DNA from: an uncultured Candidatus Rokubacteria bacterium
GTDB taxonomy: Bacteria > Methylomirabilota > Methylomirabilia > Rokubacteriales > CSP1-6
Reading direction: 5' to 3'
DNA length: 64,000 nucleotides
Assembly (NCBI GenBank): GCA_963721815.1
Contig: CAVRLO010000024.1
Location: 422,234-486,233 of the forward strand
Shown: in pieces, positions 12,336-39,038 of the stretch
Layout: the number at the start of each line of letters is the position of its first letter
Numbering within the stretch: position 1 is the stretch's first letter
Program-made: the position numbers and the translations under genes
The notes under the pieces: generated by a model
Seen by the model: the letters and a program-made list of their open reading frames with translations, nothing else
Database searches by the model: none
Told to the model about the DNA's origin: nothing

Positions 12336-13510
12336 CAGACGAAGGTGAGGGGCTCGACGTTGGCTTCGCCGCGCGCGAAGCGGCCGATGTCGAGGGGGCC
12401 GGCGTCCATGGTCACGGCGTGGCCGTGCCCGAGCATCTCGGCCATGAGCTGGCCGGCGATCGGCCCGTGCATGAAGCCGTGGCCGCTGAAGCCGGCGATG
12501 ACGTGAAGCCCGGTGACGCCGGGTACGGCGCTCACGATGCCGGTCTGGTCCGGCGTCATCTCGTAGAGGCCCGCCCACGCCCGCATCAGCTCGGCGTCGG
12601 CCAGGGCCGGCGCCCGGTGAATTGCGCGCTCGATCAGCGCGGGCTCGAGGCTCCGGTCGATCTCGGTGCTGAAGCCGTCGGGCTCGTCGCGCCGCCCGTG
12701 GCCGAGCAGGAGCCCGGGGCCCTCGCGGCGCAGGGAGAAGTTCGTGTGCGGGTCGATGATGAACGGGGTGGCCGCCGGGATGCGCGATGGCGGAAACGGC
12801 GCGGTCATGAACTTGTGGCGCCGGTGCGGGCTCACCGGGATGTCGACGCCGGCGAGCCGGCCGACGACGCCCGACCAGGCCCCGGTCGCGATGACGGTGG
12901 CGCGCGCCTCGAACGAGCCGGCTGCGGTGGCGACGCCGCGCACGCGCTCGCCGTCGCGGAGAAAGCCGTGCACCTCGTGCTGCTGCTTGATCGTCACGCC
13001 GAGATCGCGCGCGCGGGCCGCGATCGCGGTCGCGCACAGGTACGGGTCGGCGTAGCCGTCGCGTGGCGTATAGGTGGCGCCGAGGAGATCGTCGGTGTTG
13101 AGATACGGGCACAGCGAGCGAGTCGCCGCGGCGTCGAGCAGCTCGACCTGCACACCCAGGCTTCGCTGGAGCGCGACGCTGCGCCGCGCGACCGCCAGCT
13201 CGTCCTCGCTCCCGATCAGGATCAGGTAGCCGTGCTGCCGAAAGTTGGGATCGACGCCGAACTCGTCCTTGAAGCGCTCGTAGGTGACGATGCTGTGCGT
13301 CGTCAGCTCCACGCCCAGACGGTTCGCGTACTGGTGACGGATGCCGCCGCTCGCGAGCGCCGTCGAGCCCGAGCAGACGGTGTCGCGCTCGAGGACGATC
13401 ACCGGGCCCACGCCGAGCCGGGCCAGATGGTACGCCGTGCTCACGCCCATGATGCCGGCGCCGACGATCACGACTTCCGCAGTTTGCGCCACGCCGCCAC
13501 CATACGGCAA
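12335..13510 (-). CDS. FAD-dependent amine oxidoreductase (glycine oxidase / sarcosine oxidase beta / DadA-like)
   Basis: 'VVIVGAGIMGVSTAY' dinucleotide-binding motif; 391 aa. Confidence 0.75.
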   Translation of the reverse strand: MPYGGGVAQTAEVVIVGAGIMGVSTAYHLARLGVGPVIVLERDTVCSGSTALASGGIRHQYANRLGVELTTHSIVTYERFKDEFGVDPNFRQHGYLILIGSEDELAVARRSVALQRSLGVQVELLDAAATRSLCPYLNTDDLLGATYTPRDGYADPYLCATAIAARARDLGVTIKQQHEVHGFLRDGERVRGVATAAGSFEARATVIATGAWSGVVGRLAGVDIPVSPHRRHKFMTAPFPPSRIPAATPFIIDPHTNFSLRREGPGLLLGHGRRDEPDGFSTEIDRSLEPALIERAIHRAPALADAELMRAWAGLYEMTPDQTGIVSAVPGVTGLHVIAGFSGHGFMHGPIAGQLMAEMLGHGHAVTMDAGPLDIGRFARGEANVEPLTFV

Positions 13511-13624
13511 GCCTGAGCCGGGCTCAACGGCTGGTTCGAAGCCGCTTGAATCGGCACGCCAACGCGGTGATCATGGCGCGCGGCGGAGCCGGGAGATCCC
13601 GGCCCGGCGAGGGAGGGCACTTCG

Positions 13625-15022
13625 ATGGCGACGATAGATCCTGTGTGGGCAACGGTCGCGGAGCTGTCCCGCGCATTCGAGGCGCGCACCTTGTCGCCGG
13701 TCGACGCCGTCGAGGCGCTGCTCGGGCGTATCAAGCGGCGCAATCCGGCTCTCCAAGCGTTCATCGCGGTCTACGACGCCGAGGCGCGGCTGGCGGCCGA
13801 GGCCGCCGACAAGGCCATCCGCGCTGGCCATCGCGTCGGGCCGCTCCATGGCGTCCCGATCGCGCTCAAGGACCTCGTCGATCTCGAGGGCCGTGTCACC
13901 ACCGGCGGCTCGAAGGTGTGGGCCGAGCGCGTGTCGCCAGTCACCGCGACCTTGGCGCGCCGGCTCATCGCCGCCGGGATGATCGTCCTCGGCAAGACGC
14001 ACACGGTCGAGTTCGCCATGGGCAGCTGGGGCACCAACACGCACATGGGCACGCCGCGCAATCCGTGGGATCTCGCGGTCCATCGCACACCCGGCGGCTC
14101 GTCCAGCGGCTCGGGTGTTGCCGTCTCCGCCGGGCTCGCGCCGGTCGCGATCGGCACCGATACCGGCGGCTCCGTCAGGATTCCTGCGGCGTGGTGCGGC
14201 ATCGTGGGGCTCAAGGTGACGGCGGGGAGGATCAGCACGTACGGCGTCCTTCCGCTCAGCTCGACGCTCGACACGCCGGGCCCCCTCGCGCGCTCGGTCG
14301 AGGACGCGGCGTTGATCTATCGCGTACTGAACGGGGCCGATCCGCAAGACCCGCAGACCCTCGCGTGGACTCCGGTCGATCCGATGGCGACGCTCCGGCG
14401 CGGCATCGCGGGCCTGCGGCTCGCGGTCTTGCCCGACGTCGAGCGGACGGGTGTCGAGAAGGAAGTGCTCGCCGCGTACGACACCGCGGTGAACGCGCTG
14501 GCCGGGCTCGGCGCCGATATCGTGCGCGTCGAGTTTCCGCGCCGCCTGAGCGACTACGCCGCGGCCACGGGCACGATCATCGGCGCGGAGGGCTATCGAT
14601 TCGTCGGCCACCTCGTCGACGACACGGCGCTTCCCACGGACCCGCACGTGCGGCCACGCATCCAGCTCGGGAAGACCATCTCCGCGCGTGACTACTTGCT
14701 CGCCCTGGCGCAGCGAGAAGAGCACAAGCGCGAGTTCGTGGCAGCGCTGGGCAGTGTCGACGCGATCCTGACGCCGACCGCGCAGACCGCGGCGATTCCG
14801 ATCGATCGAGCGGATCAGGCGGGCACGGCGGCCCACTTCACGCGCCCCGGCAACTATCTCGGCCTCTGCGGCCTCGCGATCCCCTGCGGCTTTTCCACGC
14901 ACGACCTGCCGCTCTCTCTCCAGATCCTCTGCCATCCCGGCGAGGAAGCGACGGCGCTGCGCATCGGCTGGGCCTACGAGCAGGCCACGAGCTGGAAAGC
15001 GCGTAGACCTCCCGAGCCGTAA
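13625..15022 (+). CDS. amidase (amidase-signature family)
   Basis: 'GGSSSGSGVAVSAG...GTDTGGSVRIPAAWCG' AS-family signature. Confidence 0.8.
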   Translation: MATIDPVWATVAELSRAFEARTLSPVDAVEALLGRIKRRNPALQAFIAVYDAEARLAAEAADKAIRAGHRVGPLHGVPIALKDLVDLEGRVTTGGSKVWAERVSPVTATLARRLIAAGMIVLGKTHTVEFAMGSWGTNTHMGTPRNPWDLAVHRTPGGSSSGSGVAVSAGLAPVAIGTDTGGSVRIPAAWCGIVGLKVTAGRISTYGVLPLSSTLDTPGPLARSVEDAALIYRVLNGADPQDPQTLAWTPVDPMATLRRGIAGLRLAVLPDVERTGVEKEVLAAYDTAVNALAGLGADIVRVEFPRRLSDYAAATGTIIGAEGYRFVGHLVDDTALPTDPHVRPRIQLGKTISARDYLLALAQREEHKREFVAALGSVDAILTPTAQTAAIPIDRADQAGTAAHFTRPGNYLGLCGLAIPCGFSTHDLPLSLQILCHPGEEATALRIGWAYEQATSWKARRPPEP

Positions 15023-16887: not shown

Positions 16888-18441
16888 CTACTCCTTGGTC
16901 ACGTTCTCGACGCGCAGATCGAAGCCGCTGGGATGGAGGCTGAAGCCCTTCACGTTGGCGCGTGTCGCGACCACCTGGATCTCGTGGTCCACGAAGACCC
17001 ACGGCGCGTCCTCGACGATGAGGCGTTGCGCCTTCTTGTAGAGCTCGGCGCGCCGGCCTCGGTCCGTGATCTGTCGCGCCTGGACGAGGAGCTGGTCGAC
17101 CTCGGGATTACTGTAGTTCGAGCGGTTCGGCATGGGCTGGTTCTTGGAAAAGAAAAGCGGGTACATGGACAGGTCGGGATCCTCGGACTTCAAGAACCAG
17201 GACAGCGCGAACATCGCCGGCGCATCGGAGCGCACCTTGCCGAGATAGGAGCCCCACTCGAAGGTCTTGAGCTGCGCCTTGACGCCCACCGCCGCCAGAT
17301 TCGCCTGGATCACCGTCGACATCTCGACCGGCGCCTGCATCCCGGAGCCCGACTCCGGCACCCAGAAATCCACCTCCAGGCCGTTGGGGAAGCCGGCCTC
17401 CGCGAGAAGCTTTCGGGCCGCTCCGGGGTCGTACGCGTACTTGCGGACGTTCGGCTCGAACGCCCAGGTGCCCGGGAGCAGGGGACCGACCGCCGGGATC
17501 CCGGTGCCCTTGAGGATGTCGCGGACGATCGCGTCCTTGTTCACCGCGTGGTTGAAGGCCTGGCGGACCCGGCGATCCGTGAACGGCTTCTTCTCGACGT
17601 TGAAGCCGGCGTACCACACGGTGAGGCCGGTGGCCTTGTGGACGGTGACGCCGGACGTCTTCTCCAGGCGGCCGACGAAATCGGGCGGGATCGGCAGGAT
17701 GAGATCGACGCCGCCCGTCAAGAGCTCGGACACGCGCGTGTTGGCCTCCGCGATGCCGCGATAGACGAGGACCTGGGGCTTGCCCTTGACGCCCCAGTAG
17801 TCGTCGTGACGGCGCAGCACGAGCCGGCTGCCCCGCTCCCACGACTCGAACCGGTACCGGCCGCTTCCCACCGGCTTGGTGTCGAAGTCGGCGGGCGACT
17901 TCGTGAAGGCCGTCGGGCTGACGATCGCGCAGTTCGGCAGGGCGAGCAGCGCCAGCAAGGAGCCCGTCGGGTACTTCAGGTGCAGCTGCACGGTTTGAGG
18001 ATCGAGCACCTCGACCGCTTTCACGCTCGAGAGATAGCCCGTGACGAACGTCCACTTGCCGCTCTTCGCGTGCGGGTGGGACGGGTCGATGATCCGGTCG
18101 AAGGTGAACTTGACCGCCGCGGCGTCGAGCGGCGTGCCGTCGTGGAAGCGGACGCCCTTGCGCAGCTTGAACGTCCACGTCATCCCATCGGCCGACGTGG
18201 TCCAGGACTCGGCGAGCCCTGGGATCACCTCGGTGCTGTCGGCGCGCGTGGCGACGAGCGTCTCGAAGATCTCGGCGGTGACGCGCAAGGTGTGAAGTCC
18301 GAGCGCCTGTCCGGGATCGAGGCCCGGCGGCTCGGCCTCCATGCCGACCACGAGCACGTCGCGGGGCACCTGCGCGACGGCGGGAGACGTCAGCAGCACG
18401 ACCGCGAGCAAGGTTGCGAGCACAGAAATGAAGGTCGTCAT
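16888..18441 (-). CDS. ABC transporter substrate-binding protein, family 5 (peptide/nickel/opine type)
   Basis: 517 aa with signal peptide; SBP_bac_5 pattern. Confidence 0.8.
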   Translation of the reverse strand: MTTFISVLATLLAVVLLTSPAVAQVPRDVLVVGMEAEPPGLDPGQALGLHTLRVTAEIFETLVATRADSTEVIPGLAESWTTSADGMTWTFKLRKGVRFHDGTPLDAAAVKFTFDRIIDPSHPHAKSGKWTFVTGYLSSVKAVEVLDPQTVQLHLKYPTGSLLALLALPNCAIVSPTAFTKSPADFDTKPVGSGRYRFESWERGSRLVLRRHDDYWGVKGKPQVLVYRGIAEANTRVSELLTGGVDLILPIPPDFVGRLEKTSGVTVHKATGLTVWYAGFNVEKKPFTDRRVRQAFNHAVNKDAIVRDILKGTGIPAVGPLLPGTWAFEPNVRKYAYDPGAARKLLAEAGFPNGLEVDFWVPESGSGMQAPVEMSTVIQANLAAVGVKAQLKTFEWGSYLGKVRSDAPAMFALSWFLKSEDPDLSMYPLFFSKNQPMPNRSNYSNPEVDQLLVQARQITDRGRRAELYKKAQRLIVEDAPWVFVDHEIQVVATRANVKGFSLHPSGFDLRVENVTKE

Positions 18442-18475
18442 GGCCCCTTATAGCGCCGTCGTCCGCACGGCGCAA

Positions 18476-19815: not shown

Positions 19816-20283
19816 TCAAGTCGTAGCCGCGGCGCGCCTCGCCTCGCGCAGCCCGGCGAGGATCGCATCGCGATCGAGGCTCATTTCCATCAGCGCGACC
19901 TGGGCCTCGTACACGTCCGCCGGCACCTGGTCACGCACCTCGGGCTCGAACACGTGAAACACAGGGAGCCCCAACGGGACTCCGGCCAACGGGCCCGCGT
20001 AGGAAGGATCGCCGGCGACGACGGTCTGGGCGAGCGTCTGCGTGCTCTCGGCGTCGGGGGTCCCGAGCAGGACCACCACGCCGCTGCCGTGCTCGTCCGC
20101 GATTCGCTTCACCGCCGCTTGATCCTCCAGGCCCATGGCGCCCGCCGCCGTTCAGACGTAGCAAGCGGTCAGGGTCAGCACGACGTCGGCGCCAGCGCGG
20201 CTCGCGCATTCCGCGACCGCGGGGCCCGGCACGCCGTCGCGCTCGCCGAGCGCGATGACCTTCTTGCCTCGGAGATCCATCAT
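19816..20283 (-). CDS. grdA: glycine/sarcosine/betaine reductase complex selenoprotein A (GrdA); UGA (Sec) at 20152..20154
   Basis: '[61 protein letters not shown]' matches the GrdA CxxU context; ATG overlaps the GrdC-like stop (ATGATG/TGA). Confidence 0.8.
20152..20154 (-). other. in-frame UGA, predicted selenocysteine codon of GrdA
   Basis: conserved position 44 in the 'CYVU' motif. Confidence 0.75.
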
Positions 20284-21734
20284 GTCGCTCCTTTCGCTCC
20301 GTTGCGCTCCAGGACGAGCGAGAGCCCGTCGGGGAGCTGCGTCATCCGTCCAAGAAACAGACTACCCTTGCCCGCGAACATCGTGCGGGTGAGGCGGCCC
20401 TCCGTGAGCCCGCGCCGCGCGTGGCCGAGGTACGGGATCGCCGAGGCGATGTGCCCCTGGGTCGGCGAGAATCCCGGCATGCCGCGCGTACGAACGAAAT
20501 CGTCGATGCCCTCGCGAGCGATCAGCTTCTCGACGACGGCCAGGCTCGCCAGGGTCCGGTAGTTGTTGAGCGGGACGTTGCCGCTGCCGGCGGGCTCGGT
20601 CGCTTCGGGGTTGTGCAGCTCGAGCGAGAAGCGGTCGACGTCGAGCAACGTGAGGCCGACCCGCCCGAGCGGCTCGCTGTAGAGCGATTTCACCACCGCG
20701 AGCGGGGCGGAGCCCGAGCCGACCTCGTGGCGGCCGATCGCGTCGAGCCGCAGGGTGGGCGAGACGCCGTCGTCGCGCGAGACGTGAACGGCGAAGCCGG
20801 CCAGGACGTCCTCGACGATCGGCATCGCGTGCTTCAGGTGGCCCTGGAACTTCATCCCCAGCTTGGCCAGCGAGCCGCCCGCCACCACGACCACGTCGTC
20901 GTGCAGGCCGCTGCGGACGAGCGCGCCGGCCAGCATCAGCGCGTGCATCGGCCCGCAGCAAAACGCCTTGATGTCGCTGCCGGTCGCGCGCGCGCAGCCG
21001 GCCCACTCCGCGACCGCCTTGGCGACGTTGCCGCCGCCCCGCTGATAGCGGTCGCCGACCGCCTCCTCACCGCAGTTCATGACGTAGCGCACGTCGGCGG
21101 CGGCGATCGCGCCGGGGCGCGCGAGCAGGTGACGCAGCGCCATCGCCGCGGTCGCCTTGCACGCGAGGTTCTCCAGCAGGACCTGGCCGGTCAAGGTGTC
21201 GTCCTCGTCGTGGCCCGGCAGCATGGCACCCAGGAGCCGTCCGTCCACCCCGACGATCGGCAGCGCCCGATGCCTCGCGATGCGCTCGTCGAGCAGGGCC
21301 TCGGTGACCCCGGCGCGCACCGGAGGGCGGCCGGACTCGCGACCAACTATGGGATGCGCGTCGAGCGCCGCGCGCGCGCGGTCGGCCAGGTCACGCTCGA
21401 GGGCCAAAAGGTCGAAGCCATCCGAGGCCGCCAGCAGGCCGAAGAACTCGTGCTCGGGCATGATCTCGCCGTCGGGCCCGAAGCGGCTCGCGGCTTCGAT
21501 GGGATGGCGATGCCACGGGACCGGCCGGGCGGCGAGGTCGTCCACGCCGACATTGCCGATGAATACCTGATTGGGCGCGTAGGTGCGCGCGGCGTCCCAG
21601 TCGCGCAGATGGGGCCGCAAGTACTCGATCGGTTTCTCGACCTCGCGCAGCACGCGCAGCGGCTTCGAGCCCAGGCGCACGAGGCTCGGCACGTGCGCCA
21701 GCACGAGGGAGACCGCGCGGACAACGGGCATGTC
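20280..21734 (-). CDS. GrdC-like protein (glycine reductase complex component C beta-subunit-like, thiolase/FabH-fold)
   Basis: ~485 aa; coupled to grdA; start chosen at '[18 protein letters not shown]' (ORF runs to 21767). Confidence 0.55.
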
Positions 21735-21763
21735 GCTCGAAGGCATGCGAGTCACGCGAGGCA

Positions 21764-22629
21764 TCATACCCTCTGGCCGGCTCGCAGCGCACGGTAGCGG
21801 GCAGGCGTGAGGCCAAAAGCCGATTTGAACGTTCGGGTGAGGTGCGCCTGGTCGGCGAAGCCCACCTCGTACGCGACCTCGATCAGCGGACGCCCGCGAT
21901 GAATCAGCTCGCGCGCGGCATCGAGGCGGCGCATGAGCAGATACCGGTAAGGGCTCGTGCCGAACATGAGCCTGAACTGGCGGGCCAGGTCGTAGCGGGT
22001 CAATCCCGTGACCGACTCCAGCTCGTCCGAGCGAACCACGCGCGTTTTCGCGGCGTCCAGAAACCGGCGCGCGCGCTCGGCGGCGACGGCGTCGACCCGT
22101 CTCGAGGCCCCGGGAGGTTCCCCTGCGTGCTCCGCGGCGAGCAGGCCGTCGGCCAGATCGACGACGAGACTGGTCGCCGCCAGCGATTCCAGCGGGAGCC
22201 GGAAGGCGGCGTCGAGCGCGCGGGCCAACCGGGTGTTCGCGGACACCGGGTCACGTACGAACGGCAACGGACCGGGACGTCCACGGAGGGTCCGCACCGC
22301 CTCGGCCAGGTGGGCGGGCTCGACGTAGACGATGCGGTATCCGAACCCCTCCTCGGTGCCCGCGCGGCCGTCGTGGGCTTCGTCGGGGTAGAGCACGACG
22401 ATCTGTCCCGGGGTACTGACCCGTGTGGCGCCCCGGTAGTCGAAGACTTGGGCTCCGCGGTCGGTCAGGCCGATCGCGTACGTGTCGTGGCGGTGCTTCT
22501 GGTAGGCGACGCCGCCGAACCAGGCGCGAAACAGCTCGACGCCCTCGGCCGGGTTCGTGCTGGTGACCCAGCTTCGGGTCGCGCGCGTGCACGATCGTTC
22601 AAGACCCTCGCCGCCCGATGTGGTCTCCT
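21764..22629 (-). CDS. AraC-family transcriptional regulator (cupin N-domain + HTH)
   Basis: C-terminal 'YRYLLMRRLDAARELI...EVAYEVGFADQAHLTRTFKSAFGLTPARYR'; GTG start proposed at 22629. Confidence 0.6.
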
Positions 22630-22649
22630 GGATGCGCACTGGAGACAGA

Positions 22650-23248
22650 GTACGACTACAGAGCAGCTCGCCGCGTTCCTTCTGTTCGCCGTGGTGGCCG
22701 CGGTCACACCCGGACCCAGCAACGTCATGGTGATGGCCGCCGGCGCGAATGCCGGCCTCGTGAAAGGGCTTCCGTGCCTCCTCGGTGTCGCGACCGGCAT
22801 GGGGCTCATGATGTTCCTGGTGCCGCTCGGGCTGGGGAGCGTCGTGCTCCAGCATCCCATCGGGATGAAGGCGCTCAACTGGGGCGGCGCCGGCTATCTA
22901 CTCTGGCTCTCGTGGAAGATCGCAACCGCGAGGGGTATCGAATCGGCTCCCGGGTCGCGGACGGTCGGCTATCTTCAGGCCGCGGCGTTTCAGTGGGTCA
23001 ACCCAAAGGCGTGGCTCGTGAGCGCGAGCGCCGCGGGAACGTTTCTCAGCGCGCAGGCGGGCAGCCCGGCCGTGCAGTCCGTCTATCTCGGCGGGCTCTT
23101 CTTCCTGGCGGCACTGCCGAGCGGCTTTGTCTGGCTGGCGTTCGGGGCCACGATCCAACGCTTTCTCGGGAGCCCACGGAGACTCAGGATCTTCAACGTC
23201 GCGATGGGGGCCCTCCTCGCCGTCTCGATCGCCCTCATCGTCGCGTAG
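22650..23248 (+). CDS. LysE/RhtB-family amino-acid exporter (start codon unresolved)
   Basis: 'FLLFAVVAAVTPGPSNVMVMAAG' LysE N-terminus; no canonical start in frame upstream; divergent from the AraC gene. Confidence 0.55.
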
Positions 23249-23263: not shown

Positions 23264-23944
23264 CTACCGGCTCCCCACCGGGCTTTGGCCGGCGATCTGC
23301 GCCGTCTCGGGCGACAGCGGAATCACACCGCCGGGCTCGCCGGCCAGGATCCAGTCGATGAGCAGGCGATAGCGATCCGTCGGCACGGCGCCCACCAGCG
23401 AGAGCTTCTCGTTGAGGACGACGGTCGGCAGGCCCGACACGCCGAACCACGCGGCGCCCTCGGCGCAGTCGCGCAGCACGGCTTCGTAGGCCTCGCCGGC
23501 GTAGTCGGCCTCGAAGCGCGTCGGATCGAGCGCCGTTTCGCGGATGAGGCTGCGCAGCACCTCCGGGCGCGAGATGTCGAGGTTGTCGCGGAAGTGCGCG
23601 GTGAAGAGCCGCTCGTGGAATCGCTCGAACGCCGCGTCACCCTGGAGCTCGGCGCACTTGGCGGCCGTCAGCGCCGGCACGCTCGAGGACGGCAGCGGCG
23701 TGTCGATCTCCGGCGGCACGAAGACGGCGCGAGGCTCCTCGGCGCCGACGCGCTGCCGCCCTTCGCGCGTCTTCTGGGTGACGCGCCGGTCGGGCTGCTC
23801 GCCCGGGATCAGCGGGAAGGTCCGCCAGTGGAGCCGGATACGATCGCCGTAGGTCTGCTGGATCTCGCGCAGGCGCACCGCGGCGTTGTAACACCAGGGA
23901 CACAAGTAGTCAGAGAAGACGTCCACGCGGACCGGCGCGGTCAT
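23264..23944 (-). CDS. DsbA-like (FrnE-type) thioredoxin-fold oxidoreductase with CPWC motif
   Basis: 'VDVFSDYLCPWCY'; ATG overlaps the GrdB-like stop (ATGA). Confidence 0.7.
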   Translation of the reverse strand: MTAPVRVDVFSDYLCPWCYNAAVRLREIQQTYGDRIRLHWRTFPLIPGEQPDRRVTQKTREGRQRVGAEEPRAVFVPPEIDTPLPSSSVPALTAAKCAELQGDAAFERFHERLFTAHFRDNLDISRPEVLRSLIRETALDPTRFEADYAGEAYEAVLRDCAEGAAWFGVSGLPTVVLNEKLSLVGAVPTDRYRLLIDWILAGEPGGVIPLSPETAQIAGQSPVGSR

Positions 23945-25264
23945 TCGCGCGTGAACACCGTGGGCCGCGCCACCTCGGTGCGCAGCGCCTGGAGCGCCTG
24001 CTCGACGATGCGCCGCCGCAGCGCCTTCTCGTCCTCGGGCGAAAGATCCGCGCTGCCCAGGGGATGGATGATCCCCGCGGCCGACACGATGCGATTGGCG
24101 CCGACCATCACCGCCACCGGCGTCATGGTCGAGACCTGCACCGTCGGTAACCCCGCGCGCTCGAGCTCTCGCGTGATCGCTGCGCCGCAGCGAGTGCTCG
24201 TCCCTCAGGTGGAGGTGAGGATGACGGCGTCGACGCCGGCGGCGCGCAGCTTCTCCGCGATCTCCCGCCCCATGCGCGCGCTCTGGGCCAGGGTGGTCGC
24301 GACGCCGACGGTCGAATAGACCGTCTCGTGGAGCTTGCCGATCGCGCCGCTCTGCTCGAGCTCGCGCGCGACGTCCACGGGCACCAGCCGATGCGGATCC
24401 TGCTTTACCCACGTGGTGTCGTAGCCGCGATGCGGATTGTCGTACTGGGTCGCGTCGAGGCTCGACTTGCCCTCGATGCTGTAGGCGCCGTAGCGGGTCG
24501 CGTTCAGGGCCTCGATCCCGTCGGGGTTGCCTTGCGGGACGAGACCGCCGTCGGTGACGAGCGCGATCGTCGCGCCCTCGAGCGTCTTGATGAGCCGCGG
24601 CGCCGCGACGGGCGGGAACGCCGGCCTCGGCACCTCCGTCGCGAAGGCCCGGCCGCCGAGCTTGTCGAGCAGCATGGCCACGGCGCGATCGGCGGCGCTG
24701 GCGCCGGCGACGACGTTGCGGGTGACGCCACGGGCGAAGTAGCCGTGAGCGGCCGGGCTGCCGAGCGCCTCGCCGCGCGCGAGCTTCAATCCGAGCCCCA
24801 CGAGCCGCTGCACCTCCGGGAGCATCCGCGTGGCTTCCGCGCCGGTCTGGACGACGTAGACCTGGCGGCGATAGAGCTCGACGCCGGGATTCTCGGCGTG
24901 CATGCCGGTCACGGTCGGAATCTTCAGCTCGGCTTGCACCGCGGCGCAGAGCGCGCCGCACGCGACGCCGTAGCGGCCGGCCAGGAACGCCGGGCCCGGC
25001 CACCAGGAGATCGGGCCGCGCCGCGGCCACCAGGCGCACCAGCTCGGCGGTCGCGCGCTCGGCCTGCTCGGCCGCGTAGTTGTCGCCGCAGATCACCGTC
25101 GCGACGACCGTGCCCGCGTCGCCGAGCGCCTGCTGGACGGCGCGCGCGGCCCCGACGGCCCCGTCCGCGACCTGGGGCCCGACGCCGGCCTTCTCCTCGC
25201 CGCCGAGCTGGCCGAAGAACTGGTTGAGGTAGCAGACGACTCGCAACGTCTCGGCCGCCATCAC
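23941..25264 (-). CDS. GrdB-like selenoprotein (glycine/sarcosine/betaine reductase component B family), paralog 1; UGA (Sec) at 24205..24207; apparent +1 frameshift near 24990
   Basis: N-terminus 'LRVVCYLNQFFGQLGGEEKAG' (ORF 23264..25264 frame); middle 'AFLAGRYGVACG...GVDAVILTST' then TGA then 'GTSTRCGAAITRELERAGLPTVQVSTMTPVAVMVGANRIV' (ORFs 24205..24939 and 23941..24141 share a frame). Confidence 0.7.
24205..24207 (-). other. in-frame UGA, predicted selenocysteine codon of GrdB-like paralog 1
   Basis: 'ILTST-U-GTSTRC' context; CGCTGC-GGC-GCAGCG hairpin downstream. Confidence 0.7.
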
Positions 25265-26523
25265 CGCACCTCCGCCATCACTCTGGTTGTCCCGACCTGC
25301 TCGATCGCGCCGCAGAGCCCGCCGTACGTGACGCGAGTCTCGCCCAGGAGCTTCGGCGCCAGATCATCGGCGCCGATCACACGGTCCATCGCCGGCAAGG
25401 TGAGCGGCTCCTGGCTGCTCCCGACGTTCACGAGCGCGTCGACCCCTGGAAAATCGAAGAGCAGCATGCCCTCGGCGCTGCCGTCGGTCGACATGTCCTC
25501 GACGACCGCCGTCGTCTTCACGCCCAGCGCCTCGCACTGCGAGGCCGCCTGCGCCATGTCGACGTGCGGGGCGCCGCCGCCGATCTTGGTGAGGACGGCG
25601 CCGTCGGCGCCGAGCGTGTGCGCGACGAGCCCGGCGGTGAGGAACGCCGAGCGTACGCGCTCGGGCTCGGTCGCCTGCGCGACGGTGACGACCACGCCCG
25701 CGAACCAGAGCGTGCGGCCGTGCTGCGCGTAGAGCGCCCTGATCATCGGATGATTCTGGGTCGCCCACGTGGTCACGCTGCGGCCCATGAAGCCCCGGAG
25801 CACGGCGCCGTCGAGGACTTCGTTCGGGTGCACGATCGTCGGCAGCATGCGACGCACCGGATCGCCGTAGAGGATTCCCTCGTCGAGGCCCGTCGGGCGC
25901 TGGTGCGAGTGGATCTGGAAGACGTAGGCCACGCGCGGCAGATGCGCGAGCTCGGCGGGAACGCGCGGCGAGGGCGGCAGCTCGAACACCTCCACCCGAT
26001 CGGGCGCGGCCTCGTGCGCGGCCCGGGCGAGGTGCACCGCGGCCTTCAGCGCGGCGAGCCGCACGGCGGCCAGATAGTCGGAGCGCTCGGTGCCCGGCGA
26101 GGGCCAGGCCGAAATTACGAGGTTGTGCGTGCGGCCGAACGCCGAGAGCGCCGCGTTGGGGCCGGCCATGTCGATCACGGCCAAGGTGCCGACGTTGTCC
26201 GTCTGCTGATCCGTCGCGACGACCGCCACGCCGGCCAGCGCCGTCGTCCGCCCGTGGCCGGCGCGCCCGACGCCGCCCAGGACGCCCGGGAAATCCTCGC
26301 CGCCGTCGACCTTCGCCCGCGGCGCGATCACGTCGAACACCCGACCGATGCGGCAGCGCTCGCCCGGATGCGCGAGGTCGAGGCGAATCCGGGCGAGGCG
26401 CGAGTCGGCGGACAGGAGCTCGCGCAGCTCGTCGAGATCGACCTCGAGCCGCTTGCCCACCAGACGCGTGACGGGCGCGGCCACGAGGGCGTCCACGTCG
26501 GACCAGCGTAGCTCGAGTCGCAT
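25261..26523 (-). CDS. GrdE-like proprotein (component B alpha/beta subunit family), paralog 1
   Basis: 420 aa from 'MRLELRW'; homologous to the 41055..42395 product; the longer ORF extension to 27126 is an artifact. Confidence 0.6.
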   Translation of the reverse strand: MRLELRWSDVDALVAAPVTRLVGKRLEVDLDELRELLSADSRLARIRLDLAHPGERCRIGRVFDVIAPRAKVDGGEDFPGVLGGVGRAGHGRTTALAGVAVVATDQQTDNVGTLAVIDMAGPNAALSAFGRTHNLVISAWPSPGTERSDYLAAVRLAALKAAVHLARAAHEAAPDRVEVFELPPSPRVPAELAHLPRVAYVFQIHSHQRPTGLDEGILYGDPVRRMLPTIVHPNEVLDGAVLRGFMGRSVTTWATQNHPMIRALYAQHGRTLWFAGVVVTVAQATEPERVRSAFLTAGLVAHTLGADGAVLTKIGGGAPHVDMAQAASQCEALGVKTTAVVEDMSTDGSAEGMLLFDFPGVDALVNVGSSQEPLTLPAMDRVIGADDLAPKLLGETRVTYGGLCGAIEQVGTTRVMAEVR

Positions 26524-26531
26524 GGCGGCGG

Positions 26532-27509
26532 CTACGCGAGCAGGCTGCGCAGCTCGGGGACGACCCAGAGCGGCGACCGCCCGGCTTCCATGCGCTGGAT
26601 GTTGTCGAAGCCGTTTCGATATGCCTTCGTCCAGTTGTCCCACGTCGGTCCGGCGCTGTGCGGCGTGAGCGTGACGTTCGGCAGCGAGAACAGCGGGTGA
26701 TTCTGCTTGGGCGGCTCTTCGACCATCACGTCGAGGCCGGCGGCGGCGATCGTGCCCGACGTGAGCGCCCGGTGCAGCGCGTCCTCGTCGACGACCGGGC
26801 CGCGGCAGGTGTTGATGAGGATCGCGCTCTTCTTCATCATCCCGAGCTCGCGCGTCGAGATCATCTTGCGGGTGACGTCGTTCAGGGGCACATGCAGGGT
26901 CACCACGTCGGACGTGCGGAGCAGCTCGGTGAACAAGGTGAAGCGCACGCCGAGCGCGTCTTCCTGGTCCTCGGTGAGCCGGAGGATGTCGTAGTAGCGC
27001 ACGTCCATGTCGAAGCCCTGGACGCGTCGCGCGACCTTCTTGCCGATGTTGCCGAGGCCGACGATGCCCAGGCGCTTGCCCTCGACCTCGTAGGTGCGGT
27101 TCTCGGCGAAGTCGGCGACGCGCCACTTGCCGGCGGCGACGTTGTTGTGGTGGTACACGAGCTTCTTGAGCACGGCGAGCATGAGCATGACGGCGTGCTC
27201 GGCGACGGCCACCGAGTTGGCGCCGCCGTTGTTGGCGACGGGGACCTTGGCCTTGCGCGCGGCCTCGACGTCGACCCGGTCGTAGCCCGCGCTGGTCAGC
27301 TGGATCAGCTTGAGCTTGGGCGCGGCGCGGAAGAACTCGTTGCCGATGCCGGTGCGCGGCGAGCCCAGATAGTACTCGGCGTCGGCGGCCTTGTCGTAGA
27401 ACTCGGGCTTACCCGGATCGACGACGACCAGCTCCATGCCGGGCGGGAGCAGCTCGCGCGCGATGTCCATGACCGGGGCGGGTTGGGGCGGCGTGAGGAT
27501 CTTGGTCAC
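26532..27509 (-). CDS. D-isomer-specific 2-hydroxyacid dehydrogenase (NAD-binding)
   Basis: 'GIVGLGNIGKKVARR' Rossmann motif; 325 aa; first gene of the grdE/grdB-like operon. Confidence 0.8.
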   Translation of the reverse strand: MTKILTPPQPAPVMDIARELLPPGMELVVVDPGKPEFYDKAADAEYYLGSPRTGIGNEFFRAAPKLKLIQLTSAGYDRVDVEAARKAKVPVANNGGANSVAVAEHAVMLMLAVLKKLVYHHNNVAAGKWRVADFAENRTYEVEGKRLGIVGLGNIGKKVARRVQGFDMDVRYYDILRLTEDQEDALGVRFTLFTELLRTSDVVTLHVPLNDVTRKMISTRELGMMKKSAILINTCRGPVVDEDALHRALTSGTIAAAGLDVMVEEPPKQNHPLFSLPNVTLTPHSAGPTWDNWTKAYRNGFDNIQRMEAGRSPLWVVPELRSLLA

Positions 27510-27568: not shown

Positions 27569-28904
27569 ATGGCCGACGAGGACTCCTCGGATCTCGGCGC
27601 CCGCGCGCGGCTGGAGGCGGCCTTCGCGCGGGAGGAGCGCCGCGGATTGATGCTCGCCGCCGCGGCGCGCTCGGCGGCGGTGGCGGTGATCATCGTCTGG
27701 CTCGCGCTGGCGAACCCCGACACCGGCCGGGCCTATCTGTGGACCCTCGGCACGGCGTGCTTCCTTCTCGTCACCGGCCTGGCGCAGTTCTGGCTCTACT
27801 GGCGACAGCTGGCGCCTCCGATCGTTCCCTACGCCTTCGTCCTCGTCGACTCGCTGGCGCTGGCGGCGGCCATCCTCCTTCCGAATCCGTTCGACACGAT
27901 GAACCTGCCGCCGGCCCTGCCGCTGCGGTACGCCTCCTTCATGTACTTCTTCGTCCTCCTCATGCAGGCCGCCTTCTCGTTCCGGCCGCGACTGCTGCTC
28001 TGGACGGGGTTGAGCGGCGTCGTCGCCTGGACGCTCGGCTTTCTCTGGATCGTCACCCGGCCCGAGACCATCGTCCTTCCGGGCCGCGGCCGCGCCGCCC
28101 AGCTCCCCGTGTACTTCGATCGCAACTTCGCCTCGCTGATCAAGTTCGAGAACGAGATCATCGTGTTCTTACTGGTGAGCGCCGGGCTGGCGCTCCTCGT
28201 CCGGCGCTCGCGCTCGCTAGTGGCCGAGCGGGCGGCGGCCGAGCGCGCCCGCGGCAACCTGGCCCGTTACTTCTCGCCCAAGGTCGTGGACACCCTGGCC
28301 GAGCGCGACGAGCCGCTGGGCCGCGTGCGCCGCCAGGCGGTCGGCGTGCTCTTCGCCGATCTCGTGGGGTTCACGACCATGGCCGAGGACATGACCCCTG
28401 AAGAGGTCATGGCGTTGCTGCGCGATTTCCACGGCCGGATGGAAGAGGTGGTGTTTCGCCACAACGGCTGCCTGGAGAAGTTCATCGGCGACGCCCTGCT
28501 GGCGACGTTCGGTGTCCCCGAGATCGGCCCGCGCGACGCCACCGACACGCTCGCCTGCGCGCGCGCCATGCTGGCCGCGCTGCATGCGTGGAATCAGGAG
28601 CGGACGGCGGCTGGGCTATCGGGTCTGCACATGGGGCTCGGCCTGCATTACGGCCAGGTGGTAGCCGGCGACATCGGCAGCCGACGGAGCATGGCCTTCG
28701 CGACGGTGGGCGACACCACCAACGTCACCAGCCGCCTGCAGGCGCTCACCCGGGACTTGCGCACGAGCATCGTGGCCAGCGGCGCGCTCGTCGCCGCCAT
28801 CGAGCGGGAGGCCGCCGACGTGAAGCTGCTCGCAGGGACTGACCTCCCGCGGCCCGCACGCCCTGCGCGGGCGCGACACGCTCATCGAGCTGTGGGCGGA
28901 GTGA
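27569..28904 (+). CDS. membrane-anchored class III adenylate/guanylate cyclase; apparent frameshift near 28850
   Basis: multiple TM segments then 'VLFADLVGFTTMAE...FIGDALLATFG'; native C-terminus 'HALRGRDTLIELWAE*' lies in another frame. Confidence 0.65.
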
Positions 28905-28933
28905 GGGAAGCTCTGTCCGGGGGAGGAGCTGCC

Positions 28934-30052
28934 GTGGTCTCGACGTTCGCCGCGCTCGTGCTGGTGGCGGTGGTCGCATTCGCCGGGGAGGCGCCGCGAT
29001 CGCCGAACCCGAAGCACAGCCGGCTGCCCGCGCGTCAGGTCGATGTCGCGCAAGGGCTCGAGCACCCCTGGGGACTGGCGTTTCTTCCCGACGGTGGCCT
29101 GCTCGTCACCGAGCGCGCGGGCCGGCTCCGGGTCGTGGACCGCAACGGTGTGCTGTCGGAGCCGCTCGCCGGCGTCCCCCAGGTCCGCGCCGGCGGCCAG
29201 GGCGGGTTACTCGACGTCGCGCTGAGTCCCACGTTCGCTCAAGATCGGCTCGTCTATCTCTCGTTCTCCGAGCCGGGCGAGGGCGGTGCCGGCACCGCTG
29301 TGGCGCGTGGGCGGCTCGGCGAGCGCGGGCTCGAGGACGCCCAGACGATCTGGCGCCAGCACCCGAAGGTGGGCGGAGGCCTTCACTGGGGCTCTCGGCT
29401 GATGTTCCGCTCGGACGGCACGCTCTTCGTCACGCTCGGAGACCGGGGCTCGCGCGACTACGCTCAGGATCTCTCCACCACCATCGGCAAGATCGTCCGG
29501 ATCAACGGCGATGGTACGATCCCGCGCGACAACCCGTTCATCGGTCGCTACGGCGTCCGGCCGGAGATCTGGTCGTACGGCCATCGCAACGCGCAGGGGG
29601 CCGCGCTCGACGCGCGCGGACAGCTGTGGACCATCGAGCACGGCGCCCGCGGCGGGGACGAGGTGAACCACCCGGAGCCCGGCCGCAACTACGGCTGGCC
29701 CATCATCAGCTACGGCGTCGACTATTCCGGCGCCAAGATCGGCGTCGGCACCACGCGGCCGGGCATGGAGCAGCCGGTCTACTACTGGGATCCGGTCATC
29801 GCGCCCTCGGGCGCGACGTTCTACAGCGGCGACGCGTTTCCCGACTGGCGAGGCGACCTGCTGATTGGCTCGCTGAATCCCGGCGGCCTCGTGCGCCTGA
29901 GACTCACCAACGGTCGCGTCGCCGGTGAGAGCCACTACGTGATCGATCCCGGCGAGCGCGTCCGCGATGTACGGCAAGGGCCGGACGGGATGATCTACGT
30001 CCTGACCGACAATTCCCGCGGTCGCATCGTCCGTCTCGAACCGTCGCGATAA
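28934..30052 (+). CDS. PQQ-dependent soluble sugar (aldose/sorbosone) dehydrogenase, secreted
   Basis: SD GGGGGAGGAG then GTG; signal peptide; 'HPWGLAFLPDGGLLVTERAGRLRVV'; previously merged into an 827 aa ORF. Confidence 0.65.
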   Translation: MVSTFAALVLVAVVAFAGEAPRSPNPKHSRLPARQVDVAQGLEHPWGLAFLPDGGLLVTERAGRLRVVDRNGVLSEPLAGVPQVRAGGQGGLLDVALSPTFAQDRLVYLSFSEPGEGGAGTAVARGRLGERGLEDAQTIWRQHPKVGGGLHWGSRLMFRSDGTLFVTLGDRGSRDYAQDLSTTIGKIVRINGDGTIPRDNPFIGRYGVRPEIWSYGHRNAQGAALDARGQLWTIEHGARGGDEVNHPEPGRNYGWPIISYGVDYSGAKIGVGTTRPGMEQPVYYWDPVIAPSGATFYSGDAFPDWRGDLLIGSLNPGGLVRLRLTNGRVAGESHYVIDPGERVRDVRQGPDGMIYVLTDNSRGRIVRLEPSR

Positions 30053-31025: not shown

Positions 31026-31862
31026 ATGCTGATCGTCGACTCGCAGATCCACCTCTGGCAGAACGGCAAGATGAGCGGGCACCATCGCCAGATCCCGACC
31101 TATTCGGTCGACGATGCGCTGGCCGAGATGGCCTCGGCCGGCGTCGACTGCGCGGTGATTCATCCGCCCAGCTCGCTCGGCGAGCCCGTCAACGTGCTGG
31201 CGGTCGACGCCGTGCGCCGCCACCCCGACAAGTTCTGCATCCTCGGGCATTTCGACCTCCAGAGCCCGGATCGCGAGCGTATCGTCTCCCACTGGCGCGA
31301 GCGGCCGGGAATGCTCGGCTTTCGGTTCACGTTCAACCAGCCGCACCAGAAGGCCTGGTGGACGGACGGCTCGCTCGACTGGTTCTGGGCGATGTCGGAG
31401 CGGGCCGGACTGCCCATCGGGCTCCTGGCGGGCGGACAGATGCCGGCCCTGGCGAACATCGCCGAGCGGCATCCGCGGCTGAAGCTTCACATCGATCACC
31501 TCGGACGTCACGGCGGCGGCACCGGGATCACCGACGACGCGGCCTTCGCCGATCTCAAGGACACGCTCGCGCTGGCGAAGTATCCCAATGTCGCGATCAA
31601 GATGTCGGGGGCGCCGAGCTACTCGAGCCAGCCCTATCCGTACAAGAACATCCACGGCTATCTGCGGCAGATCTTCGAGGCGTTCGGGCCGGAACGCTCG
31701 TTCTGGGGCACCGACATCACGCGCATGCCGTGCTCGTATCGTGAGTGCGTGACGATGTTCACCGAAGAGCTGCCGTGGCTGAAGGGTCGCGACCTCGAGC
31801 GCGTAATGGGCGGCGCCGTCGTCGATTGGCTCGGCTGGAAGCGGCCGGGAGGGCGGGCATGA
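31026..31862 (+). CDS. amidohydrolase-2 family metal-dependent hydrolase
   Basis: 'MLIVDSQIHLW' N-terminus; 278 aa. Confidence 0.6.
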   Translation: MLIVDSQIHLWQNGKMSGHHRQIPTYSVDDALAEMASAGVDCAVIHPPSSLGEPVNVLAVDAVRRHPDKFCILGHFDLQSPDRERIVSHWRERPGMLGFRFTFNQPHQKAWWTDGSLDWFWAMSERAGLPIGLLAGGQMPALANIAERHPRLKLHIDHLGRHGGGTGITDDAAFADLKDTLALAKYPNVAIKMSGAPSYSSQPYPYKNIHGYLRQIFEAFGPERSFWGTDITRMPCSYRECVTMFTEELPWLKGRDLERVMGGAVVDWLGWKRPGGRA

Positions 31863-33022
31863 TCACGAAGTTCGGCAGCCTGTTCGCGGGCCACGTCGAT
31901 CTGGACAACGAGGGGCTGGACGGGACCGCGGCGAACGACCGCTGGCTTTCCGACGAGGAGCTGGCGGGCGTGTTCCCGAAGAGCGAGGCGATCGCGAAGC
32001 TGATGGACCGGACCGGCTACGATACCTTCTGGCTGGCCGAGCACCACTTCCAGCGCGAAGGCTACGAGTGCATCCCGAACATCCTGATGCTCGCCCTGCA
32101 CCTCTGCCACATCACCAAGCAGATCAAGATCGGCTGCGGCTTCAACATCGCGCCGATGTGGCACCCGCTCAGGATGGCCGAGGACTACGCCACCGCCGAC
32201 TGGCTGACCGGCGGCCGGGTCATCTTCGGCGTCGGACGCGGCTATCACACGCGTGAGGTCGAGGTCTTCGGCGCCCCGCTGCTCGACCAGGAAGCCAACC
32301 GGGAGCTGTTCGAGGAGCAGGTCGAGGTCATCTTCAAATCGTTCAACCAGCGCGCGTTCTCGCACCAGGGCAAGTACTACACGCTCCCGCCCCAGGTGCC
32401 CTATCGGGGCTACGAGCTCCGGGACATCAGCCTGGTCCCGCGCCCGAAGACGTTGCCGGTCGAGTGCTGGCAGCCGGTCGTGAGCGCCAGCCCGCGAGCA
32501 CTCGATTTCATGGCCAAGCACGGCATCAAGGGCATCATCGGCGGCGGCGCGGCGCAGGGCGGCGCCAACGAGAAGGTCGTGCACGCGTTCCGCGAGGCGC
32601 GCGCGCGGGCCGGCCGCGAGACCCAGCTCGGTGGCGATCTCTGCATCGGTTTTTCGTTCTACATCGCCGACAGCGTCGAGCAGGGGATCAAGGAAGCGAC
32701 GCCGTTCTTCGAGGAGAACATCAAGATGTTCGCGCCGCTCGGCTTTGTGCCGGGTCTGACGCCCGAGCAGATCGACGCGGTCGCCGATCCCAAGCGCGCG
32801 CGGCAGGCCGGGCTGCCGACCCTGCGCAACGCGATCAAGGCGGGTACCTGGCTGATCGGACCGCCGGAGCAGATCACCGAGCAGCTGATGGAGGTCCAGC
32901 ACAAGTATCCCGGCCTGGAGGTCGTCAACGTCGGCCAGCCCGTCGGCACGCCGGAGGCGGTGATTCTCGAGCAGCTCGAGCGCTTCGCGAAGCAGGTGAT
33001 GCCGGCGTTCAAGCGCGCGTAG
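31859..33022 (+). CDS. LLM-class flavin-dependent oxidoreductase (luciferase-like monooxygenase)
   Basis: 'MITKFGSLFAG...DTFWLAEHHF'; ATGA overlap with the upstream gene. Confidence 0.75.
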   Translation: MITKFGSLFAGHVDLDNEGLDGTAANDRWLSDEELAGVFPKSEAIAKLMDRTGYDTFWLAEHHFQREGYECIPNILMLALHLCHITKQIKIGCGFNIAPMWHPLRMAEDYATADWLTGGRVIFGVGRGYHTREVEVFGAPLLDQEANRELFEEQVEVIFKSFNQRAFSHQGKYYTLPPQVPYRGYELRDISLVPRPKTLPVECWQPVVSASPRALDFMAKHGIKGIIGGGAAQGGANEKVVHAFREARARAGRETQLGGDLCIGFSFYIADSVEQGIKEATPFFEENIKMFAPLGFVPGLTPEQIDAVADPKRARQAGLPTLRNAIKAGTWLIGPPEQITEQLMEVQHKYPGLEVVNVGQPVGTPEAVILEQLERFAKQVMPAFKRA

Positions 33023-35527: not shown

Positions 35528-36248
35528 CTACGCTTCGCCGTGGAAGAGGCGGCCGAGGCCCGCGATGGGCTCGGTGATCTCGAGCCGGCGAAGGGCCGCC
35601 CAGAGCACGGCTTGATTGCTGTTCACGACCGGCTTGTCGAGGCGCCCCTCGACGTCCTCGATGGCGTCGATCATGCTCGTGGCCGTGCAGCTCAGGAAAT
35701 AGCCGTCAGCCTCGGCCCGGCGGTTTTCCACAGTGAGGTCGGCCCATTGCCGTCGGGGTGATCCGGAGATACTCGTCGCCGCCGCCCTTGAGCCCGAGCC
35801 CGAGGTCGTGAACGACCTCGTAGCCCGCCTCGCCCAGGAACTCGATCTCGTGCTCGTTGGTGGCCTTCACGTATGGGCTGATGAGCACGACCTTCCGGAG
35901 CCGGAGCTTCGCGAGTGCTTCCTTGACGGCGAGTCCCGTGGTCAGGGCGCGACAGCCGCTGGCCTTCTCGACGAGCTCAAGGATGCGGGCTTCCCCGGCT
36001 TGGCCCTCGGCCATGGAGTTAGCGGTGCAGTGGAAGACGATCACGCCCGGGCTCGTGTCGGAGAGCGCCTCGGCAGCGCGGGTGATGTCGTCGGCGAGCT
36101 CGCGCAGCGGTCGCGACCACTGGCCGGTCATGCGCAGGCGCGTGGTGTGCACGCCGACGCCCACGGGGGCGTAGCGCTGGAACTGCACCTCGGCGGCGGT
36201 GTTGCTGGCCGGGACGATGAGACCGATACGCGGTGTCGGCGTCGTCAT
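35528..36248 (-). CDS. Asp/Glu/hydantoin racemase superfamily (maleate isomerase / arylmalonate decarboxylase-like); apparent frameshift near 35745
   Basis: ORF 35706..36272 and ORF 35528..35731 are consecutive in different frames; GGAGGAGG RBS. Confidence 0.5.
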
Positions 36249-36430
36249 GGTGATCCTCCTCCGCGCCACCAACCGTCAGGGCGCCCGTACGCTGCAGGCA
36301 TCGCCGGAGAGCATATCTCCCTCGACCTCGGCGGAACAGCCCCGGGGCAGTGTCGCGCCGCCCTTGCTCACTCGTTGTGTTGGCGCTACGGTTGCCCCAC
36401 GATTCGGGCCGGCGGTTCGCGGGAGGCGCA

Positions 36431-37189: not shown

Positions 37190-37416
37190 AGGACGGCCCC
37201 GATGAGCGGGGCAGGTATTGAAGCGCTTGACAACGCCACGGCGGAGACTACCATCCGCCACGAAGGGTAGGGTAACTCTCCACGCATCGACGGCTGATCG
37301 CTTGAGGTGTCCCGATGCGATCAGGTGCTTGTTCCTGCAGATCTGACACCTTTCCCGCGCCTGTGAGCGGGCAAGGTCCCTCCGCGAAAGGTCCCTCCGC
37401 GAAAGGAGAACCTGCG

Positions 37417-39015: not shown

Positions 39016-39038
39016 GCCGGCGGGGCTAGGTAATCGCC

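Follow-up and report, generated by a model that had tools for sequence, protein, structure and literature searches.

Layout of the Locus

We analysed 64,000 nucleotides of DNA from an uncultured Candidatus Rokubacteria bacterium (assembly GCA_963721815.1, contig CAVRLO010000024.1, positions 422,234 to 486,233; G+C 68.7%), and this whole stretch is called the window below. Four closely spaced genes on its minus strand, running from 27509 to 23264, encode a 2-hydroxyacid dehydrogenase, a GrdE-like protein, a GrdB-like selenoprotein and a DsbA-like protein (Table 1). These genes probably make up one substrate-specific protein-B module of a glycine-reductase-type selenoenzyme complex, with the GrdE-like and GrdB-like proteins as its alpha and beta subunits, accompanied by a FrnE-like dithiol protein and a dehydrogenase. 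The arrangement had been picked out in an earlier note made from the sequence alone, and it is real: when neighbourhoods were compared across genomes, the order dehydrogenase, alpha, B, DsbA, (LysE), AraC, GrdC, GrdA was found again in about 20 related genomes (loci L001-L020), so it is not a matter of chance.

The dehydrogenase gene starts with GTG, preceded by the Shine–Dalgarno sequence AGGAGG, and the alpha-subunit gene begins 8 nt past its stop codon. The start of the GrdB-like gene overlaps the alpha-subunit stop as TGATG, which couples the two, and the ATG of the DsbA-like gene lies within the GrdB-like stop codon; this ATGA overlap, also recognized earlier, indicates translational coupling. 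A scan for promoters and terminators gave nothing above chance. The catalytic and NAD-binding domains of the dehydrogenase are both present (Pfam scores of 213 bits for PF02826 and 64 bits for PF00389), and the protein stays under every NCBIfam equivalog cut-off, the top model being glyoxylate reductase (223 vs. 455 bits). In the PDB it comes closest to PGDH, glyoxylate reductase and FDH. PDB sequence searches with the alpha and beta subunits returned no relatives.

Table 1. Positions of the module, of its selenocysteine elements and of related genes in the window.
Feature	Position	Strand	Details
D-isomer-specific 2-hydroxyacid dehydrogenase family protein	26532..27509	-	325 aa, first of four genes; PF02826, PF00389
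Protein-B alpha subunit (GrdE/GrdI-like), non-processed type	25261..26523	-	420 aa; PF09338, E 8e-92
Protein-B selenoprotein subunit (GrdB-like)	23941..25261	-	439 aa after frame correction; PF07355, E 8e-136
Single extra G/C breaking the GrdB-like frame	24991	-	run GGGCCCGGCG; alignment to four relatives
Selenocysteine codon TGA of the GrdB-like protein	24205..24207	-	context 'GVDAVILTST-U-GTSTRCGAAI'
Selenocysteine insertion sequence (SECIS) element	24165..24204	-	core hairpin CGCUGC-GGC-GCAGCG at 24178..24192
FrnE-like cytoplasmic DsbA-family thiol-disulfide oxidoreductase	23264..23944	-	226 aa; PF01323, 88 bits
LysE/RhtB-family exporter	22727..23248	+	convergent with the DsbA-like gene; PF01810 in L001, L002, tblastn
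AraC-family regulator	21764..22639	-	PF02311, PF12833; stop overlaps GrdC start as ATGA
GrdC, component C beta subunit	20280..21767	-	495 aa; NF040746, 588 bits vs. cut-off 450
GrdA, selenoprotein A	19816..20283	-	155 aa; NF040748, 194 bits vs. cut-off 130
Second protein-B selenoprotein (B2)	42385..43734	-	TGA 42685..42687, motif UGTCNRC; passes TIGR01918 only
B2 alpha subunit, non-processed type	41081..42383	-	frame broken by one extra base at ~41483

Selenocysteine Codon and SECIS Element

Gene callers divide the GrdB-like gene at its in-frame TGA into products of 351 and 61 aa, as would be fitting for a true stop codon with two separate products. We give this reading next to no probability. 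A TGA occupies the homologous codon in 86/86 GrdB-family genes (84 loci, many phyla), and in these genes conserved residues follow it directly, ahead of any start codon. TIGR01918, a curated NCBIfam model, spans the TGA in an end-to-end alignment (positions 1-430 of its 431, 518 bits). The ratio of nonsynonymous to synonymous substitution rates (dN/dS) of the 87 codons past the TGA, taken against four relatives, is 0.03-0.13, equal to or below the values before it, and marks strong purifying selection; a comparison with L017 was disregarded, since a paralogue had been picked.

A 6-bp SECIS stem begins 15 nt past the UGA and is intact in 80 of the 86 homologues, among which CGC...GCG is exchanged for CGU...ACG in a compensatory manner. 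In five loci (L038, L048, L050, L073, L076) a change of Cys UGC to Ser AGC is matched by a synonymous change of Ala GCA to GCU, and the stem therefore stays intact, a textbook case of compensatory change inside a coding region. The Rfam SECIS_4 match at this site is weak (20.4 bits, below the gathering score of 38) and minimum-free-energy folding of the post-UGA region alone was no better than that of shuffled sequences; support for the element thus comes from the comparison of homologues, not from folding energy. Judged by these comparisons, the TGA is a selenocysteine codon, in line with its earlier assignment as the catalytic selenocysteine (Sec) of a component-B selenoprotein, and the refuting case named earlier, a genuine stop with two products, does not apply.

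A Frameshift in the GrdB-Like Gene

In the earlier note the GrdB-like open reading frame reads through the TGA. In the window the frame is discontinuous, with the first 90 codons in one frame and the remainder in the next: a single extra G, unnoticed before, splits it between 'LLVAGP' and 'AFLAGRYG'. This G is missing from L001, L002, L005 and L006, the last two being curated short-read metagenome-assembled genomes (MAGs), and the frame is intact in all four. If the frameshift were genuine, the gene would be a pseudogene in this strain and the module inactive here, and the window does carry an uncompensated 1-nt insertion inside the gene. The chances of this seem slim to us: the insertion falls in a G/C run, and the protein is otherwise undamaged, with 98% identity to the intact L001 copy.

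Similar irregularities are scattered over the window. Against L001, which is 97% identical, further lone 1-nt indels were found at 15512, 16625, 19747 and 28833; the B2 alpha gene has its one extra base relative to L003, L009 and L017; and an amidase gene is divided between two frames (59842..61406, plus strand), which makes at least two more frameshifted conserved genes. The sister assembly L002, of the same naming style, is full of such indels, many of them in the same GrdB-like gene. Fusion is seen as well: guanylate-cyclase-family and GSDH-family genes form one 827-aa open reading frame (27569..30052), which corresponds to two genes in L001. Because the extra G is absent in relatives and three other genes of the window are broken or fused, we very probably face an assembly error, not a pseudogene. 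The pattern points to indel errors left over in a long-read assembly.

Classification of the Alpha and Beta Subunits

The GrdB-like protein passes the models of the selenoprotein B subfamily (TIGR01918, cut-off 65; PF07355, 453 bits, cut-off 22) and falls short of every substrate-specific one: GrdB (TIGR01917, 478 bits, cut-off 602), GrdF (NF040794, 492 bits, cut-off 800), GrdH (NF040795, 459 bits, cut-off 775) and PrdB (TIGR04483, 92 bits, cut-off 300). Controls from the canonical loci L053, L060, L063 and L071 pass TIGR01917 with 641-685 bits. The alpha subunit likewise stays below the GrdG (NF040793, 229 bits, cut-off 780) and FarE (NF053623, 172 bits, cut-off 675) models, as do eight other non-canonical alpha subunits, and the PrdA model (TIGR04480, cut-off 700) gave no match for it. 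For representative alpha subunits, the cluster members bear nothing but a generic name ('glycine/sarcosine/betaine reductase component B subunit'), which labels no clade.

The redox motif of the beta subunit reads U352-G-T-S-T-R-C358, not UxxCxxC; Ser takes the place of the first Cys in every Rokubacterial orthologue and across a wide clade. The alpha subunit had been labelled a pyruvoyl-type proprotein, and a conserved internal Cys for self-cleavage was looked for. None is present at the aligned site: the canonical subunits have 'SGNCVSACDKNTTY' where this one has 'RGFMGRSVTTW', so that the cleavage Cys of 'SGNCVSACDKN' is replaced within 'RGFMGRSV', and in the wider alpha clade neither Cys nor Ser is conserved at this place. 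With the cysteines of the canonical site, a subunit cleaves itself and forms its pyruvoyl group (Bednarski et al. 2001, cited in PMC10838667). Because the cleavage Cys is absent, the alpha subunit is, as far as its sequence can tell, unable to form a pyruvoyl group and hence not a proprotein.

The two features travel together across loci. Alpha subunits with 'SGNC' pair with 'UGTCTRC' beta subunits that pass TIGR01917, most of them in clusters with GrdD, and alphas without the Cys pair with UGT(S/G)TRC betas. Neighbour-joining trees of both subunits place the module in a large uncharacterised clade apart from the canonical glycine clade; its nearest relatives outside Rokubacteria are the contig L004 (alpha 49%, beta 56% identical) and MAGs that bear the labels Tectomicrobia (L022), Chloroflexota (L044), Deltaproteobacteria and Binataceae. 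By trees and motifs, the module is thus part of a broad clade, so far uncharacterised, whose alphas are non-processed and whose betas have the UxxSxxC motif. The earlier expectation that neither subunit would fall into a characterised Grd or Prd clade thus held, all curated NCBIfam cut-offs being missed by far, and so did the suggestion of a substrate outside the characterised set, in that no cut-off for glycine, sarcosine, betaine, proline or fluoroacetate was reached.

Betaine is common in soil, and a divergent betaine reductase, that is, a GrdH/GrdI orthologue freeing trimethylamine from glycine betaine, would fit with the adjacent GrdA and GrdC. It would also fit with an alpha subunit without the cleavage cysteine, as was reported for GrdI (PMC10838667). 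We regard such an enzyme as unlikely, since the GrdH score of the beta subunit is lower than its own GrdF and GrdB scores and no nearest relative passes the GrdH model. Betaine clusters usually include a BCCT/OpuD-type transporter (PMC6716910); none was found in the window, where the nearby transport genes are of the SBP_bac_5/Opp type.

Shared GrdC and GrdA and a Second Protein-B Module

The composition of the unit had been called unlike that of characterised reductase operons, a view that did not survive inspection of its surroundings. An AraC-GrdC-GrdA unit starts 1.5 kb downstream, placing the shared GrdC and GrdA 1.5-3.5 kb downstream of the four genes, and both proteins pass their equivalog cut-offs. 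GrdA is itself a selenoprotein: an in-frame TGA (20152..20154) stands in 'CYV-U-TAAG', the CxxU motif is present, the TGA is kept in 39/39 GrdA genes, and the gene overlaps GrdC by ATGA. Because GrdC and GrdA are adjacent, the locus is a Grd-type complex and not a stand-alone system.

A second protein-B module, B2, lies further away in the window. Its SECIS_4 element (42647..42684) scores 42.5 bits, above the Rfam gathering score, and in the neighbour-joining trees it joins a Chloroflexi relative (L038) in a different deep clade of its own. An ABC transporter of the SBP_bac_5/Opp type (37306..40952) is convergent with B2.

With two modules present, one could imagine a stand-alone reductase, as had been proposed earlier: GrdC and GrdA would serve B2 only, and the alpha and beta subunits would act with the DsbA-like protein but without GrdA and GrdC, as in D-proline reductase. 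The alpha-B-DsbA unit is indeed bounded by divergent and convergent genes, L018 and L011 have it without nearby GrdC or GrdA, and many alpha-B pairs outside Rokubacteria have neither gene within 10 kb. We nevertheless consider this scheme improbable. In 12 Rokubacterial loci with enough sequence GrdC and GrdA follow the present module, not B2, and the nearest relatives outside Rokubacteria stand in direct alpha-B-GrdC-GrdA or B-alpha-GrdC-GrdA arrays (L021, L024-L032, L039, L041). The PrdB score is far from its cut-off, and it is known that a single GrdA/GrdC set can serve several B modules (PMC10838667).

Three genes for binding proteins of the SBP_bac_5 family (peptide/opine/nickel type) are found in the window (16888..18447, minus strand; 37306..39015 and 58215..59852, plus strand). 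One of them borders the GrdA region on its downstream side, and another is next to B2. In L014, L017 and L020 an SBP_bac_5 gene sits between the two B modules. This placement is a possible hint about substrate uptake.

A DsbA-Like Protein That May Replace Thioredoxin

The DsbA-like protein has CPWC at residues 15-18 and no signal peptide. Its best PDB match is FrnE of Deinococcus radiodurans (E 1e-10), with the 'VDxxSDxxCPWCY' segment aligned; no Cys occurs in its C-terminal 60 residues, and it thus lacks the CxxxxC tail found in many, not all, FrnE members. FrnE is described as a disulfide reductase of the cytoplasm; its motif is CP(W/F)C, and thioredoxin reductase plus NADPH can reduce it (PMC8945050).

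We tallied thioredoxin (TrxA) and DsbA-like genes in the 37 loci holding both GrdA and GrdC. In 16 loci the cluster includes TrxA, in many cases as the gene that separates GrdC from GrdA, and no DsbA-like gene accompanies it; another 16 (11 Rokubacteria, 5 Binatia-type) have a DsbA-like CPWC gene and no thioredoxin; five have neither and none has both. Since the two genes are mutually exclusive across Grd clusters, the tally suggests that the DsbA-like protein may replace thioredoxin by non-orthologous displacement. As had been proposed, a dithiol reductant of the module's own is credible on this pattern of gene content. In the Binatia-type loci L028, L029, L032, L039 and L041 (for example, L029 5070..7223, minus strand), the CPWC DsbA/FrnE-like gene lies by an NADPH-dependent FMN reductase and an Asp/Glu-racemase-like gene, and the group precedes a luciferase-like monooxygenase and a B-alpha-GrdC-GrdA array.

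GrdD, the PlsX-like alpha subunit of component C, reportedly holds the acetyl-thioester cysteine. Two GrdD sequences from canonical loci served as tblastn queries. GrdD beside GrdC was detected only in loci of Bacillota, Clostridia, Syntrophomonadaceae and Synergistota, and none was found in Rokubacterial, Chloroflexi, Deltaproteobacterial, Binatia-type or Eremiobacterota clusters. GrdC and GrdA without adjacent GrdD occur in L021, L024-L032, L038-L046, L049, L052, L057, L065, L076 and L080, as well as in the window. In such clusters, either GrdD is encoded elsewhere in the genome or the reaction is finished differently. Two genes after GrdA were considered as substitutes and rejected, both being unlike GrdD: one of 219 aa with weak, sub-threshold DUF1554/endostatin matches, and one of about 208 aa whose hydrophobic N-terminus looks, by eye, like a signal peptide.

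Conservation Across Genomes

The alpha subunit shares 87-99% identity with more than 120 clusters, and those named by organism are Candidatus Rokubacteria (Rokuibacteriota/Methylomirabilota). Clustering at 50% identity yields about 990 alpha-subunit clusters, and there the next representative has just 49% identity to this one. The DsbA-like gene comes directly after the GrdB-like gene in all 16 Rokubacterial loci with sequence there, down to 73% alpha identity.

A link to 2-hydroxy or 2-oxo acids had been suspected from the dehydrogenase. It finds no support in the comparison: the gene is present in 13 of the 18 Rokubacterial loci with upstream sequence (L014 and L016 have a second B module or a binding protein in its place) and is unassociated with the module in other phyla, where a weak family member (30-33%) is near in only 2/64 loci, which fits chance.

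Public pipelines already give these genes generic annotations. Our literature searches found no paper describing this module; those for Rokubacteria and glycine reductase found nothing, and those for Rokubacteria and selenocysteine only incidental matches. A Methylomirabilota MAG was reported with 63 predicted selenoprotein genes (PMC13188914).

Comparison with Known Systems

The glycine reductase complex of Clostridia and Peptoclostridium (GrdE/GrdB, GrdA, GrdC/GrdD, TrxA/TrxB) shares with this locus the Pfam families of both subunits, the position of Sec, the SECIS type, and GrdA (with CxxU) and GrdC that pass equivalog models. It differs in the cleavage Cys of its alpha subunit and in UxxCxxC, where the beta subunit described here has UxxSxxC and is below the TIGR01917 cut-off. 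Instead of GrdD, TrxA and TrxB, the present cluster has the FrnE-like DsbA, the 2-hydroxyacid dehydrogenase, the LysE exporter and the AraC regulator. GrdI and FarE are also without processing cysteines, and FarB is without CxxC (PMC10838667).

Betaine reductase (GrdH/GrdI) is alike in its non-processed alpha subunit, as reported for GrdI (PMC10838667), and in its use of GrdA and GrdC; as seen above, GrdH is not the best-scoring model here and a BCCT transporter is lacking. The fluoroacetate reductase FarE/FarB of Cloacibacillus porcorum is alike in that its alpha subunit has no processing cysteines, its beta subunit has an altered CxxC after Sec, and it feeds GrdA (PMC10838667). The FarE model is missed by far, neither a farA antiporter nor a radical-SAM farC occurs here, and the phylum and gene context are different. 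Sequence features thus make the module resemble the betaine/fluoroacetate type in its presumed mechanism, as a member of neither family.

More distant is D-proline reductase, in which both subunits are homologous and PrdB is a selenoprotein, but PrdA is a pyruvoyl proprotein and GrdA and GrdC are not used. As for D. radiodurans FrnE, its N-terminal beta-strand and the CPWC that follows align residue for residue with the DsbA-like protein and a signal peptide is absent (PMC8945050), whereas identity is about 30% over parts only, the C-terminal CxxxxC tail of drFrnE is missing, and the DsbA-like gene here is translationally coupled to a selenoprotein gene.

Proposed Mechanism and Its Weighing

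We hypothesize a course of reaction by analogy with GrdHI and FarEB. Sec352 would attack C2 of an X-CH2-COO- compound, from which X would depart without Schiff-base activation; the carboxymethyl group would be transferred to the selenocysteine of GrdA, and GrdC would convert it to an acetyl thioester and then to acetyl phosphate or acetate. The CPWC protein, and not an operon-encoded thioredoxin, would re-reduce the Se-S bond of GrdA or the Sec352-Cys358 pair of the beta subunit, and would itself be reduced by a thioredoxin reductase encoded elsewhere. The dehydrogenase may feed reducing equivalents as NAD(P)H or act on a precursor, which is the weakest link of the scheme.

Going one step further, the enzyme could be a Sec reductase for a new substrate, cleaving some X-CH2-COO- compound outside the set of glycine, sarcosine, betaine and fluoroacetate, with the FrnE-like DsbA as electron donor instead of thioredoxin and the acetyl group released without GrdD. 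We put this forward as a tentative and rather doubtful possibility. Candidate substrates would be a sulfonium or halo-acetate, or an N-carboxymethyl (opine-like) amine, with the imine coming from the co-encoded dehydrogenase.

Several observations speak against a protein-B module of the kind preferred here, or leave parts of it bare. Because no GrdD, thioredoxin or thioredoxin reductase was found in the window, acetyl-phosphate formation and the input of electrons are unaccounted for; TrxA and TrxB had no match in the Rokubacterial loci either, and GrdD was not found by tblastn within 10 kb in any of them. No selenocysteine machinery lies in the 64 kb. The mutual exclusion of DsbA and TrxA is seen in two lineages only, Rokubacteria and the Binatia type, and in the latter the DsbA-like gene is 3 kb upstream on the other strand, by the FMN reductase. 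The dehydrogenase is missing in 5 of the 18 Rokubacterial loci, and in L018 and L011, the two most divergent or short of these loci, GrdC and GrdA are absent from the available sequence. The trees contain no bona fide GrdH or GrdI, and betaine is excluded by hidden Markov model scores only. Finally, the frameshift at 24991 could be genuine.

To our knowledge, only about five substrates of this selenoenzyme family have been described, and this soil phylum is not known for Stickland-type chemistry. The module is near-invariant in many soil Rokubacteria, with 87-99% protein identity and a dN/dS of about 0.1, so its function must be important to a soil lineage that is abundant and uncultured. Its substrate, once identified, would extend the carbon and nitrogen turnover of soil by one reaction and help to explain the selenium investment of these bacteria, a lineage that was flagged as unusually selenoprotein-rich (PMC13188914). 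The exchange of thioredoxin for a FrnE-like DsbA and the absence of GrdD outside Firmicutes and Synergistota among the clusters sampled are, for now, apparent patterns and not yet findings; if true, they would revise the textbook complex.

Other Genes of the Window

The LysE/RhtB exporter has an uncertain start, as homology reaches about 30 codons further upstream. A DAO-family FAD oxidoreductase (sarcosine/glycine/D-amino-acid oxidase type) stands back to back with an amidase (12335..15022), a few kb from the Grd cluster, and a connection with N-methylglycine metabolism is conceivable. Luciferase-like monooxygenase and arylmalonate-decarboxylase/racemase-like genes flank the Rokubacterial cluster (31745..33022, 35706..36275). 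No tRNA gene was found in the window.

A fourth TGA-selenoprotein gene, beside those for GrdA and the two B subunits, encodes a UGSC-family protein (PF24696; 7060..8655, minus strand) with its TGA at 8326..8328 in 'GVDAVIIGNAA-U-GSCATACGRAAARLEAHGIPTV'. Four such genes in 64 kb imply that the machinery for Sec insertion (selA, selB, selD, tRNA-Sec) probably exists in the genome. The UGSC-family protein is fused to a domain of about 420 aa without a Pfam match, and the surroundings of its Sec are closely like the GrdB Sec loop ('GVDAVILTST-U-GTSTRCGAAITRELERAGLPTV'), a similarity which hints that UGSC proteins may share the GrdB C-terminal domain. Beside it lie two tandem, overlapping genes for putative endonucleases of the Uma2 family (PF05685; 8679..9871, plus strand).

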